Below are positions 12,844 through 38,520 of a DNA stretch of 40,820 bases, in pieces (the first letter of the stretch is position 1; the number at the start of each line of letters is the position of its first letter). The notes below the pieces were generated by a model. It had not been told where the DNA came from. It was given only the letters and a program-made list of their open reading frames with translations, and searched no databases. The position numbers were made by a program, and so were the translations under genes. The DNA comes from an uncultured Thermoplasmatales archaeon (GTDB taxonomy: Archaea > Thermoplasmatota > SW-10-69-26), in the NCBI GenBank assembly GCA_964464425.1, contig CAYXGD010000001.1, positions 1 to 40,820 on the forward strand, given 5' to 3'.

Positions 12844-12916
12844 CAGGTCACGGGTCAGGCTCTGGCGAGCCTCAAGGTTTCGGGGTCCACCGGTCCACGA
12901 GCACGGAGCGGGGGAT

Positions 12917-13026
12917 GCCGGCCGAACCCGGTGGGTCGGCGGTGTGGTTCAACCTCTCGCGAGGCCCTTGTCGTAGCATTGTCGGACCTCGCGATCGAAC
13001 AGGGGGTTCAGATCCCTCTCTGAGAA
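12917..13026. repeat. Decayed copy of the hairpin-repeat family (see 16745-17145 and 38005-38520)
   Basis: Contains GCCGAACC…GGTTC (12921-12950), CCTCTCGCGAGG/GACCTCGCGA, GGTTCAGATCC (13005-13015) and CTCTCTGAGAAC (13015-13026). These are the same stem and junction words as the two intact arrays, but the pairing is eroded. Confidence 0.5.
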
Positions 13027-13040
13027 CGATACGGTTGGAA

Positions 13041-13123
13041 CGCGGGGCGGGGGATTCGAACCCCCGGGTGCAAAGCACACAGAGTTAGCAACCCTGCGCC
13101 TTACCAGGCTAGGCAAGCCCCGC
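13041..13123 (-). tRNA. tRNA-Ser (anticodon GCU), long variable arm, no encoded CCA
   Basis: The minus strand reads GCGGGGC-TT-GCCT…AGGC-G-CAGGG-TTGCTAA-CTCTG-TGTGCTTTGCACCC-GGGGG-TTCGAAT-CCCCC-GCCCCGC-G. It has a 7-bp acceptor stem, a GGTTCGAATCC T-arm, a GTGC/GCAC variable-arm hairpin and anticodon GCT at loop positions 34-36. Confidence 0.9.
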
Positions 13124-13147
13124 AGCGGGTGGGCTGCGAAGCCAACT

Positions 13148-16082: not shown

Positions 16083-16177
16083 CGGCGCTGCAAAGCGCAC
16101 CCTAGGGTAAAACCTAACGGCTCCCGGATGACCGGTCCGGGGGGTCGACCCCCCCGAGGACCGGCCGGCCGGTGCGG

Positions 16178-16699
16178 TCAGCACCCCGCGTTGAAGACCC
16201 CCGGTGTCTCAGGACCGGTCGCCCAGGCCCCATGGAGGCCGGCGCCGATGTGGCACGCTGCCAGGCTCTCTCCAGCGCCCGGGGCCGGGAGGCCGCCGGC
16301 ATCGCCGTACGCCACGGACTGGAGCACGTCGTCGTCCTCGGTGACCAGCTCGATCTCGTCGCCACCGTTGGCGAGGTTGAGGCAGCTGCTGGGGAGCTCC
16401 AGGACCAGGTGGCTCTGGGCCGGAAGGATCCCGGTCAAGGGCCAGTGGTAGTCCTGGACCAGACCTTCACCCGGCGCGAAGCACGCGTCATGGTCGGTCA
16501 GGTAGAGCCCATCCAGTCGAAGATCGACGGGGGACGGGTTGTAGAGCTCGACCCATTCCCCGTCGACGCCCGATCCGGTCGGGTCGGGATCGACCTCCAC
16601 GAGGATGGGGGCCACCGGGTCGCTGGCCTGGGCGGCCAGAGGTAGGGCGGTCGTCATCACAAGCGCACAGATCAGCAGAGCGGCGTTGGCCGGCTGCAT
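16178..16699 (-). CDS. Secreted lamin-tail-domain (LTD) protein
   Basis: The signal peptide (MQPANAALLICALVMTTALPLAAQA) is followed by an LTD-like pattern: ILVEVDPDPTGSGVDGEWVELYNPSPVDLRLDGLYLTD…GDEIELV. Confidence 0.7.
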   Translation of the reverse strand: MQPANAALLICALVMTTALPLAAQASDPVAPILVEVDPDPTGSGVDGEWVELYNPSPVDLRLDGLYLTDHDACFAPGEGLVQDYHWPLTGILPAQSHLVLELPSSCLNLANGGDEIELVTEDDDVLQSVAYGDAGGLPAPGAGESLAACHIGAGLHGAWATGPETPGVFNAGC

Positions 16700-16717: not shown

Positions 16718-16733
16718 GGAGCTATAGCGTTCC
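16718..16733 (-). promoter_or_regulatory. TATA-like box (minus-strand GGAACGCTATAGCTCC) upstream of the LTD gene
   Basis: Centred about 26 nt upstream of the ATG at 16699. It lies between the hairpin array and the gene. Confidence 0.5.
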
Positions 16734-16744
16734 TCGACGAACGG

Positions 16745-17145
16745 CGACCGGTCTGGCCGTTGGGATGGGAGCGTGGGCGCGAAGGTCGCCGCTTCGCTGT
16801 GGTCCCGGCAACCGGCGTGGTTGGAGGTCGACCTGGGGCGGTTGGTGTGGTCGACCTCCAGATTCGCCCGAACCGGGGGGTCTCTGCAGGTTCGGGCGCT
16901 CTGAACCTCGCCCCTATCCGGTGGTCCAGGCAGGTGGTGTGGTCGACCTCCAGATCCACCCGGATCGGAGATCCGGGTTCTCTGAACCTCGCCGTTATGC
17001 TGTGGTCCCGGCGAGCGGTGTGGTTGGAGACCGGTTCTGGGTGGTTGGTGGACCGGTCTCCAGATCTGCCCGAACCGTCCGGTCGGTGTCGGTTCGGGCG
17101 CTCTGAACCTCGCCCCTATCCGGTGGTCTCGGCGAGGTTCAGATC
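16745..17145. repeat. Hairpin-repeat array 1: about 8 consecutive GC-rich stem-loops (REP/BIME- or MITE-like family)
   Basis: Perfect stems were read from the sequence. They are 16822-16833/16849-16860 (12 bp), 16865-16874/16889-16898 (10 bp) and 16958-16966/16970-16978 (9 bp, loop GGA). Further stems are 17025-17035/17052-17062 (11 bp), 17068-17076/17091-17099 (9 bp) and 17102-17114/17131-17143 (13 bp). Junction words CAGATC and CTCTGA recur. Loops share GGTTGGTGTGG-like and CTATCCGG words. Exact or near-exact blocks are shared with 38005-38520. Confidence 0.85.
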
Positions 17146-17684
17146 ACTTCGCCTTCGAGGAGCTTCTCGATCTTGTACGGGAGAAGGTTCCGGTTGATCG
17201 GGGTGACCTCGAGGATCCTGATGTCGTCCCGGCGCCGGATGTCCTGGAGCAACGGGTTCCTGGACTTCTTGTGGAGGGTCATGATCATGGACTTGTCGGA
17301 GTCCAGCGCGGCCTTGACCGCGTCGCAGAAGGCTGGGCTTTCCATCTCCATCTTGCCCACCTCGTCGACGACGATGACCTCGGCCTCCTCGATGGCGCGC
17401 AGGATGGCGCTCACACCGATGTCCTCGAGCACATCGAGGTCGACCCCGTACTTGCCGACGCGGACCTCGCTGTCGAGGTCGACGTGGGCCAGCGTGTCGG
17501 TCTCCTTGGTCAGCCAGTCCTGGATATGGAACCCCTTGCGTTGGCCGGCTTCCTCGATGGCTTCGGTCACCATCCCGCCGACGATGGTCTCCTTGCCTTC
17601 CAGTTTCTCGATGATCTTGAGGATGGTCTGGGTCTTGCCCACAGAGGGCATGCCGGTGATGCCGATCTTGGCTGCGTGGGCCAT
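17139..17684 (-). CDS. Nucleoside-triphosphatase THEP1 family (P-loop NTPase)
   Basis: The Walker A motif is GITGMPSVGKTQ, the Walker B-like motif is VIVVDEVGKME, and the length (181 aa) is typical of archaeal THEP1. Its last two codons and the TGA stop lie inside the 3' arm of hairpin 17131-17143. Confidence 0.85.
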   Translation of the reverse strand: MAHAAKIGITGMPSVGKTQTILKIIEKLEGKETIVGGMVTEAIEEAGQRKGFHIQDWLTKETDTLAHVDLDSEVRVGKYGVDLDVLEDIGVSAILRAIEEAEVIVVDEVGKMEMESPAFCDAVKAALDSDKSMIMTLHKKSRNPLLQDIRRRDDIRILEVTPINRNLLPYKIEKLLEGEVI

Positions 17685-37910: not shown

Positions 37911-37938
37911 AGGTCAACCCGAGGCGCGAAGCCCCAGG

Positions 37939-37951
37939 CCCCTTCAAAAGC
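37939..37951 (-). promoter_or_regulatory. TATA-like box (minus-strand GCTTTTGAAGGGG)
   Basis: About 36 nt upstream of the ATG at 37910. It separates the gene from hairpin array 2. Confidence 0.4.
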
Positions 37952-38004
37952 ATGTCGAAGCCCCGTGGTCTCCCGCCGATCACGGCGCAGAGCAGCCCAG
38001 GCCA

Positions 38005-38520
38005 GGATCCACCGGGCAGCCAGACCGGCCGCTGTGGTGGGGGTTGATCCGGTAGGATGTGAGGCTGGAGGTCGCCCTGGTGTGGTTGGTGTGGTCGACC
38101 TCCAGAGCCTGTCCGAACCGAGCGGTCGTTGCGGGTTCGGACGCTCTGACGGCCTCTATCCGCGCGGGTGCTTCGGCCGTCAGATCCGCCCGGATCGGAG
38201 ATTCGGGCTCTCTGAACCTCGCCTCTGCGCGGTTGGTGTGGCGAGTTGTGTTGCTGGAGGTCGCCCTGGTGTGGTTGGTGTGGTCGACCTCCAGAGCCTG
38301 TCCGAACCGAGCGGTCGTTGCGGGTTCGGACGCTCTGACGGCCTCTATCCGCGCGGGTGCTTCGGCCGTCAGATCCGCCCGGATCGGAGATCCGGGCTCT
38401 CTGAACCTCGCCTCTGCGCGGTTGGTGTGGCGAGGTTCAGATCCGACCGAACCGAGCTGTGGGTGCCGGTTCGGTCTCTCTGAGCCCCCGCGGTGGTACC
38501 GGTGGCCCAGCGGGGCCTCA
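38005..38520. repeat. Hairpin-repeat array 2: about 12 consecutive stem-loops, same family as 16745-17145
   Basis: Stems read from the sequence include 38065-38077/38093-38105 (12 of 13 pairs), 38111-38119/38134-38142 (9 bp) and 38145-38154/38175-38184 (10 bp). Others are 38188-38196/38200-38208 (9 bp with one G-T), 38400-38411/38430-38441 (12 bp), 38445-38453/38468-38476 (9 bp) and 38486-38491/38510-38515 (6 bp). An exact 23-mer, GGTTGGTGTGGTCGACCTCCAGA, occurs at 38084-38106 and at 16840-16862. Confidence 0.85.
38064..38441. repeat. Tandem direct duplication, period 189 bp, inside array 2
   Basis: 38064-38245 equals 38253-38434 apart from one mismatch that I could find by eye (T at 38203 versus C at 38392). 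Each unit carries five hairpins. The fifth hairpin of copy 1 is truncated at the junction (GCGAG|TTGTGTT). Confidence 0.9.

Follow-up and report, generated by a model that had tools for sequence, protein, structure and literature searches.

Introduction

Repetitive extragenic palindromic (REP) sequences, as described in E. coli, Pseudomonas and Stenotrophomonas, and the bacterial interspersed mosaic elements (BIMEs) that they form are GC-rich extragenic hairpins clustered in the spacers between genes, often just after a stop codon. Their copy number, in the tens to hundreds per genome, varies between close strains, and roles as mRNA 3′ barriers and as terminators have been proposed for them. 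To our knowledge dispersed palindromic repeats, though well studied in bacteria, are barely characterised in archaea, and we know of nothing of this kind described in the uncultured high-GC hypersaline Thermoplasmatota. Here we report on an array of GC-rich, perfectly paired hairpins stacked head-to-tail, hereafter array 1, at positions 16743-17143 of a 40,820-nucleotide contig (the window; CAYXGD010000001.1 of assembly GCA_964464425.1) from an uncultured Thermoplasmatales archaeon, where it occupies the spacer between a THEP1/NTPase_1 gene and a gene for a lamin-tail-domain (LTD) protein. On balance, array 1 would seem to be a copy of a lineage-specific, REP/BIME-like modular palindromic repeat that spreads at the level of DNA and is probably transcribed as a hairpin barrier at the 3′ end of the upstream gene.

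Other described systems share some of these properties. The BOX elements of Streptococcus pneumoniae are modular intergenic boxA-boxB-boxC mosaics, with a fixed order and a variable number of internal modules, which form stable stem-loops and have no transposase of their own. MITEs (miniature transposable elements with inverted repeats), including the IS200/IS605-derived palindrome-associated transposable elements (PATEs) of haloarchaea and cyanobacteria, are small, non-autonomous, hairpin-rich and intergenic, and their spread is lineage-specific. In REP clusters the tandem reiteration extends to flanking DNA, and the GTAG or CGTC tetranucleotide that ends the REP palindrome on one side is conserved (PMC3733652); ribosomes stall at REPs located within 15 nt of a stop codon (PMC12306157). 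In Haloferax volcanii, also a high-GC archaeon, a hairpin upstream of the RNA 3′ end terminated 59% of transcripts, and AGATC is reported as a downstream termination motif at the 3′ ends of coding regions (PMC7237163). Template switching has been found to create and maintain perfect hairpins (PMC8794818).

Results

Architecture of array 1

The window, an archaeal contig, has a GC content of 69% and its host is a high-GC, hypersaline-type Thermoplasmatota archaeon. THEP1 (17139-17684, − strand) lies upstream of array 1 and the gene for the LTD protein, which is secreted, lies downstream (16178-16699, − strand), leaving a spacer of 439 bp. This bears out the original prediction, made by a model from the letters of the window, of a roughly 440-bp spacer filled with back-to-back perfect hairpins. 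Array 1 contains seven perfect hairpins, with stems of 7-13 bp, together with two decayed hairpins and a chimeric unit. The loops of six of the seven measure 12-16 nt, and that of the seventh is a GGA triloop. The triloop and the hairpins themselves are as predicted, though the ranges originally given (stems of 9-13 bp and loops of 14-16 nt) were too narrow. The recurring G/T-rich loop words and CTATCCGG are also present.

The hairpins fall into four classes. Class A has the form TGGAG-x-loop-x′-CTCCA; class B has an outer variable stem surrounding the core CCGAACC..GGTTCGG; class C has the form TCTGA-x-loop-x′-TCAGA and class D is CCCGGATC-GGA-GATCCGGG. Two junction words link them: B and D are followed by CTCTGA, A and C by CAGATC.

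All features of the array are given on the + strand. At the end proximal to LTD, adjoining its promoter region, are the two decayed hairpins (16743-16813), which from a reading of the sequence form the oldest part of the array. They consist of an outer hairpin spanning 16743-16790, in which GGCGACC (16743-16749) pairs with GGTCGCC (16784-16790), and a C-type hairpin that has degenerated and contains a single C·A mismatch (GGTCGCCG-CTTCGCTGTGGTCC-CGGCAACC; 16784-16813). These are followed by an A-type hairpin with a 12 bp stem and a 15-nt G/T-rich loop (TGGAGGTCGACC / loop / GGTCGACCTCCA, then GAT; 16822-16860) and a B-type hairpin with a 10 bp stem and a 14-nt loop (CGCCCGAACC / loop / GGTTCGGGCG, then CTCTGA; 16865-16898). 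The chimeric unit (16899-16956) is as originally described: a C-type 5′ arm, CTCTGAACCTCGCC, and its loop, starting at 16899, are fused to the end of an A-type loop and the A 3′ arm, GGTCGACCTCCAGATC (16941-16956). Next come a D-type hairpin with a 9 bp stem and the GGA triloop (ACCCGGATC-GGA-GATCCGGGT; 16958-16978) and a C-type unit with a shortened stem (CTCTGAAC-CTCGCCG / TTATGCTGTGGTCC / CGGCGAG; 16980-17015), within which the perfect hairpin, at 16988-17015, has a 7 bp stem and a 14 nt loop. A second A-type hairpin, with an 11 bp stem, the inner part of which is fully different (TGGAGACCGGT / 16 nt / ACCGGTCTCCA; 17025-17062), and a second B-type hairpin with a 10 bp stem (GCCCGAACCG / 12 nt / CGGTTCGGGC; 17068-17099) lead to the terminal C-type hairpin, which has a 13 bp stem (TCTGAACCTCGCC / 16 nt / GGCGAGGTTCAGA; 17102-17143). 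The module order is then (old C) A B [C/A chimera] D C A B C, forming two units of ~202 nt that are 76-86% identical.

The stop codon of THEP1 (17139-17141, TGA on the − strand) lies within the 3′ arm of the terminal C-type hairpin and, in the sense of the gene, the array begins at the last sense codon and stop codon (ATC TGA). Between array 1 and the ATG of LTD is a TATA-like palindromic CTATAG (16722-16727), which is presumably part of the LTD promoter.

Two further arrays in the window

The THEP1-LTD spacer had been taken to be the only long one in the window. This is not the case, as a 607-bp spacer (37911-38517), between the stop codon of aEF-1beta and the promoter side of a Peripla_BP_6 (periplasmic-binding-protein) gene, is filled by a sister array of the same family and polarity (array 2; 38064-38520, + strand; Tandem Repeats Finder). 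Its modules are in the order A-B-C′-D-C, A-B-C′-D-C, B-C″ and include two units of 189 nt that are 99% identical. The stop codon of aEF-1beta (38518-38520) is again inside the last hairpin. Taking arrays 1 and 2 together, the family has a super-unit of ~190-200 nt in the order A-B-C-D-C. Array 3, which is decayed, is located directly 3′ of tRNA-Ser(GCT) (12900-13036, + strand; the tRNA gene, at 13040-13124 on the − strand, abuts it with its 3′ end). It contains a B-like hairpin and another of sequence TCGCGAGG..CCTCGCGA, along with the junction words GGTTCAGATCC-CTCTCTGA, and its distal edge is a degenerate copy of the tRNA 3′ end.

The A and D-C segments common to arrays 1 and 2 are 93-95% identical over 41-43 nt and the shared modules are in the same order, at a distance of 21 kb. 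The junction words are rare elsewhere: CTCTGA occurs 11 times on the + strand of the 40.8-kb window, with nine of these within arrays, and once on the − strand. Sharing ordered modules and rare junction words requires copying between the sites. In total the three arrays have ~25 hairpins of 21-46 nt, all of them intergenic, and 15 of the 20 perfect hairpins in the window with a stem of at least 9 bp fall in arrays 1 and 2, which make up ~2% of the sequence. Array 1 folds far more stably than its shuffles (z-score −5.1 on the + strand, −7.2 on the − strand), and in a sliding-window scan of folding both array 1 and array 2 stand out as outliers. All three arrays share one orientation and all flanking genes are on the − strand; viewed in the sense of these genes, each array starts at the 3′ boundary of the upstream gene, either inside its stop codon or at the tRNA 3′ end.

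The family is both dispersed and tandemly amplifying, with duplication of units, recombination and deletion of modules, and copying to at least three intergenic sites in 40.8 kb. The refuting condition raised in the original prediction, that no further copies exist, does not hold given the two additional arrays in the contig and the orthologous arrays in two relatives described below, and the proposal that the region is repeat-family DNA with recombinant units is supported.

In the A hairpins the inner stems are themselves palindromic, with the sequence GGTCGACC, which contains a SalI site, or ACCGGT, an AgeI site (seen at 16826-16856, 17029-17058 and 38069-38101). The same palindromic word is present twice per A hairpin, ~23 nt apart, and from its sequence might form a site for a dimeric DNA-binding protein.

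Maintenance of the pairing

Of the base pairs in 19 distinct hairpins, 194 are Watson-Crick and just one is G·T. At one position of the B stem the pair is CG, GC, UA or AU across six copies, as seen with RNAalifold and by counting of pairs, and in the C class four stem pairs are changed on both sides. The covariation scores of the B and C classes were reached by none of 500 shuffles each, and structures slid along the alignment collapse. Each class of module keeps conserved bases at the foot of its stem, and the flanking words are fixed. Between orthologous arrays the B-C modules are 67-71% identical, compared with 76-81% at the third codon positions of THEP1, and it is the composition of the loops rather than their sequence that is conserved. 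Since the changes are compensatory, and the pairing has been kept despite divergence about as fast as that of synonymous sites, the hairpin pairing is actively maintained.

Variants in which the arms are swapped are found, such as AACCTCGCC/GGCGAGGTT versus AAGGTCGCC/GGCGACCTT (ACCT/AGGT). Judging from these sequences, the missing wobble and the arm swaps point to a process acting on DNA, or to replacement from a sister copy, rather than to stepwise compensation in RNA. Assignment of the functional strand from G·U versus A·C mismatches gave no answer, as the stems are too perfect to be informative.

Arrays in related genomes

Relatives were compared at the same loci, their contigs being numbered here with the prefix L. 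The THEP1 protein is 98% identical in L015 (‘uncultured Thermoplasmatales archaeon binchicken_co207_194’), 95% in L012 (a Logan contig), 93% in L002 (a ‘Candidatus Thermoplasmatota archaeon’ metagenome-assembled genome, MAG) and 85-86% in L008 (‘Thermoplasmatales archaeon SW_10_69_26’) and L004 (GCA_964396185.1). Orthologous arrays are present at the THEP1 stop of both L012 and L015; their terminal modules are again B and C and they end likewise in ATCTGA, and in these, as in the window, the stop codon is within the first hairpin. The relatives with 85-86% identical THEP1 have no array and a spacer of only 79-130 bp; in the array-free relatives the gene stops with TAG. The orthologous arrays differ by whole modules, through both gain and loss. 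The contig of L012 breaks inside its array (2245-2363), which fits with repeats breaking short-read assemblies. As the array is present in the independent assemblies L012 and L015 it is not an assembly artefact, and the existence of close relatives that are free of it implies that arrays are gained on short time scales.

Array 2 is missing from the aEF-1beta spacers of relatives (81-91% identity), including one on another contig of the L015 MAG. After the aEF-1beta stop these relatives have one or two small, unrelated GC hairpins (L023 1350-1611; L021 10271-10404), an example from L023 being CCCCCTGGGCC-GCT-GGCCCGGGGG.

In the flanks of tRNA-Ser and tRNA-Leu genes the relatives carry clusters of hairpins positioned just after the tRNA (L005 5372-5830; L008 14074-14340; L011 4869-5260; L002 4572-5101), which are unrelated in sequence to the window modules. 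The clusters are bounded by direct repeats of 16-18 nt of the tRNA 3′ end and contain up to four extra direct copies of that end as well as inverted copies, which form long hairpins by pairing with the direct ones. Near-identical contigs differ by one repeat unit, as for L011 4918-5203 and L008 14085-14266 (~142 nt) or L002 4755-5030 and L003 3332-3369 (~235 nt). With such one-unit differences between near-identical contigs of different samples, it follows that the arrays are copy-number polymorphic within populations. Array 3 is homologous to the repeat unit downstream of tRNA-Ser in L005 and, on this sequence evidence, is the only one of the three arrays for which derivation from a tRNA 3′ end would still be considered. 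For arrays 1 and 2, neither of which is located at a tRNA gene, the same origin was explored, with the T-arm and acceptor 3′ strand of tRNA-Ser as the source, and was rejected on local alignment scores at the mean of the null.

This link to the hairpin clusters flanking tRNA genes was missed in the first reading of the window, as were the fixed polarity, the start inside the stop codon, the ~190-200-nt super-unit and the strand bias of the loops.

A single strong hairpin is also found at the junction between LTD and RNase HII in every lineage (window ~16120-16178; L015 1564-1585; L008 11199-11235; L005 2547-2579), conserved in position and unrelated in sequence. The start of the RNase HII open reading frame (ORF) as listed (16184) is probably placed too far upstream.

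Database searches and comparison with known repeats

In comparisons with Rfam, at gathering thresholds and in permissive scans, the only match in the window was to tRNA, the best in the array region having E = 0.33, far below threshold; the Rfam part of the comparison proposed originally identified no family. The ORFs that run through arrays 1 and 2 have no match in Pfam, and the six-frame translation of the two arrays had no homologue among 5.8 billion proteins. The region is non-coding, as had been proposed, module gain and loss between the orthologues pointing the same way. A pattern for the B hairpin found nothing in the GTDB genomes, and its one match in the JGI metagenomes (L001) was rejected as a chance match inside a bacterial gene. 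With a relaxed B-C pattern eight loci were obtained from GTDB, among which only L015 is real. Three patterns run against the viral contigs of IMG/VR, and BLAST against plasmids and phages, gave nothing. REPs have a cognate Y1 HUH transposase in the genome, the REP-associated tyrosine transposase (RAYT), whose gene often has REPs on its flanks. Such an enzyme, another tyrosine transposase of the IS200/IS605 type or a different candidate binding protein had been suggested as something to look for elsewhere in the genome; no transposase, integrase or RAYT was seen among ~35 window genes or in ~170 kb of the loci fetched from relatives.

The description of the region as a REP/BIME cluster or stacked MITEs stands for its genomic behaviour and not for the defining features of these classes that could be tested, namely tag, alternation, terminal inverted repeats and target-site duplications. 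Like REPs, which are 20-40 nt long, the modules (21-46 nt) are short, GC-rich extragenic palindromes that form stem-loops, clustered in spacers and growing by tandem reiteration with bits of flanking DNA; the loops, at 12-20 nt across the family, are longer than is usual for a REP. Unlike in REPs, neither GTAG/CTAC nor CGTC/GACG is present at the stem feet, which are flanked instead by CTCTGA and CAGATC, and in contrast to the alternating orientation of BIMEs all modules of the three arrays are direct and head-to-tail. The four classes of hairpin, the perfect rather than imperfect stems, the archaeal host and the lack of a visible RAYT in the window genes and relatives' loci are further differences. 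BOX elements are similar in their modular organisation but unrelated in sequence and host, and their modules, of 45-60 nt, are not each a perfect hairpin. We know of no report of BOX elements starting inside stop codons.

As regards MITEs and PATEs, no terminal inverted repeats bound the 189- or 202-nt unit or the arrays, comparison of filled and empty sites (the window versus L008, L004 and L023) revealed no target-site duplication, and no parent insertion sequence was found; the arrays are stacks of 21-46-nt hairpins, compared with single insertions of 100-400 bp. Tandem Repeats Finder finds only the 189-nt super-unit, and the spacing is irregular, there are four types of repeat and the sequence between stems is conserved, in agreement with the original view that this is not a CRISPR array. 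Array 3 and the tRNA-Ser and tRNA-Leu flank arrays of relatives resemble tRNA-integrated elements in being bounded by copies of the tRNA 3′ end. They differ in enclosing no more than 100-300 nt of hairpin DNA and in lacking an integrase, and arrays 1 and 2 match the tRNA 3′ end only at chance level. A possible functional analogue is provided by the signals of Haloferax volcanii, where hairpins near RNA 3′ ends are likewise found with an adjacent AGATC. There, however, the signals are single and AGATC is mostly inside coding regions (PMC7237163), whereas in the window AGATC is antisense to the flanking genes and the hairpins are multi-unit repeats.

Strand bias of the loops

On the + strand the loops (393 nt) have a composition of 7% A, 21% C, 42% G and 30% T, against A/C/G/T of 15/34/35/16 for the whole window. 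As the + strand loops are poor in A, the loops in the gene-sense RNA would be rich in C and A and poor in U (7%). The unrelated hairpin families in the tRNA flanks of relatives are also low in T on the sense strand, at ~8%. An origin of the bias in deamination was considered and rejected by reasoning, since it predicts enrichment of G/T on the exposed strand and a second family of the relatives is purine-rich.

Two-tetrad G-quadruplex motifs cover 11-15% of the arrays on the + strand, with a background of 2%, and 0% on the − strand. The enrichment is six- to seven-fold on the + strand, in all three arrays, and the A-type loops (16835-16850, 17039-17056, 38078-38095 and 38267-38284) are similar to the thrombin-binding aptamer (GGTTGGTGTGGTTGG). 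On the + strand the A and C hairpins are followed by CAGATC, at 16951, 17061, 17140, 38181, 38370, 38438 and 13009.

Discussion

The hairpins of array 1 and its sister arrays are maintained, have a fixed polarity and are placed at the 3′ boundaries of genes. We favour, with some reserve, the reading in which they belong to a REP/BIME-like repeat that spreads as DNA and also serves as a 3′ hairpin barrier. The arms would be kept paired by selection on the hairpin, or by correction of one arm from the other through template switching or gene conversion from sister copies. The array would be co-transcribed with the upstream gene as its 3′ trailer, which is predicted to form a row of highly stable hairpins whose loops are unstructured and poor in U. 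Such a row could block 3′ exonucleases and read-through, insulating the adjacent downstream promoter. By analogy with the stalling of ribosomes at REPs close to stop codons (PMC12306157), termination of translation may also be damped where a hairpin begins within the stop codon.

Several observations weigh against this reading. Close relatives do without arrays, so any function of the array must be dispensable. That G·U or G·T pairs are almost absent is easier to explain by a constraint on the DNA than by selection on an RNA helix. No T-runs follow the hairpins, terminator-like sites number zero in arrays 1 and 2, and the loops and junctions are T-poor on the sense strand. Among 30 window genes there is no general tendency for a hairpin to come after the stop, for which reason a hairpin after every stop codon was rejected as a genome-wide rule. 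Finally, the scans of GTDB, the JGI metagenomes and IMG/VR gave L015 as the only true extra locus.

The main rival, less probable but kept strong by the near-absence of wobble, is that the arrays are purely selfish DNA, with hairpins in single-stranded DNA recognised in trans by an enzyme encoded elsewhere, such as a RAYT, a Y1 HUH transposase of the IS200/IS605 type or a tRNA-targeting integrase. This would copy the modules into gene 3′ flanks without any function for the host, the polarity reflecting the mechanism of insertion. It would account well for the perfect Watson-Crick stems, the conserved bases at the stem feet with their fixed flanking words, the rapid gain and loss of arrays between close relatives, the tRNA 3′-end repeats of 16-18 nt that bound the relatives' tRNA-flank arrays as they do integrated elements, and the break of the L012 contig inside its array, as expected of a multi-copy repeat. 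Against it, neither the ~35 window genes nor the ~170 kb of relatives' loci contain a transposase or integrase, the units lack terminal inverted repeats, target-site duplications and the GTAG/CGTC tag and are all in direct orientation, and viral contigs, phages and plasmids hold no matches. Nor does selfishness alone account for U-poor loops in three unrelated families of hairpin. A more novel reading, which we consider unlikely as a whole, is that the arrays are the footprint of an undescribed archaeal, non-autonomous, self-stacking hairpin cassette. It would be seeded at tRNA 3′ ends, where relatives carry direct and inverted copies of the acceptor/T-arm strand, and would then spread, in one polarity, to the precise 3′ boundaries of genes, where it would provide the stop codon. 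An enzyme dedicated to the hairpins would see to it that the palindromes stay perfect, and the host, with a genome that would be without T-rich terminators, might use it as a K+-dependent hairpin/G-quadruplex transcription stop.

It is less likely still that function resides in the + strand, which is antisense to the flanking genes, either as a structured non-coding RNA with G/U-rich loops or as a roadblock on the template strand, where transcription would be stopped by hairpins together with AGATC words and with two-tetrad G-quadruplexes that high intracellular K+ stabilises. The G/T-rich loops, such as GGTTGGTGTGG, are conserved in composition, the G-quadruplex motifs are confined within the arrays to this strand, the CAGATC words match the Haloferax AGATC motif, and the palindromic CTATAG at 16722-16727 could fire both ways. 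On the other hand there is no match in Rfam, orthologues share the composition of their loops but not the loop sequences, and the other hairpin families of the relatives are C/T-rich on that strand, so that G-quadruplex potential is not general. Marginally less credible again is an account with no family-level element, in which by-products of replication or repair would have arisen independently at each site as template switching perfected quasi-palindromes and slippage multiplied them. Template switching is known to make and maintain perfect hairpins such as these (PMC8794818), the arm-swap variants would be hard to reach by point mutation through wobble intermediates, and the relatives' arrays contain direct and inverted copies of the flanking tRNA 3′ end. 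Independent origins would not, however, give two arrays 21 kb apart that share ordered modules at 93-95% identity and junction words otherwise almost absent from the window. That the feature is an artefact or has been misread, as an assembly chimera, a protein-coding repeat or a degenerate CRISPR, is most improbable. ORFs do run through arrays 1 and 2, but these are without Pfam match or protein homologue, the same locus has an array in three independent assemblies, the orthologues differ by whole modules, and unique spacers between evenly spaced, identical repeats are absent.

The variation in unit number between near-identical populations makes the arrays potential strain markers and a cause of MAG fragmentation. 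Hairpins that are perfectly paired at orthologous sites, yet diverge at about the neutral rate with almost no wobble, are relevant to whether selection or template-switch correction maintains palindromes. The arrays are also a candidate for the way in which transcript 3′ ends are marked in very GC-rich archaea, where T-runs are few. If a dedicated enzyme or a role in termination were to be shown, the family would represent a new archaeal counterpart of the REP-RAYT system.

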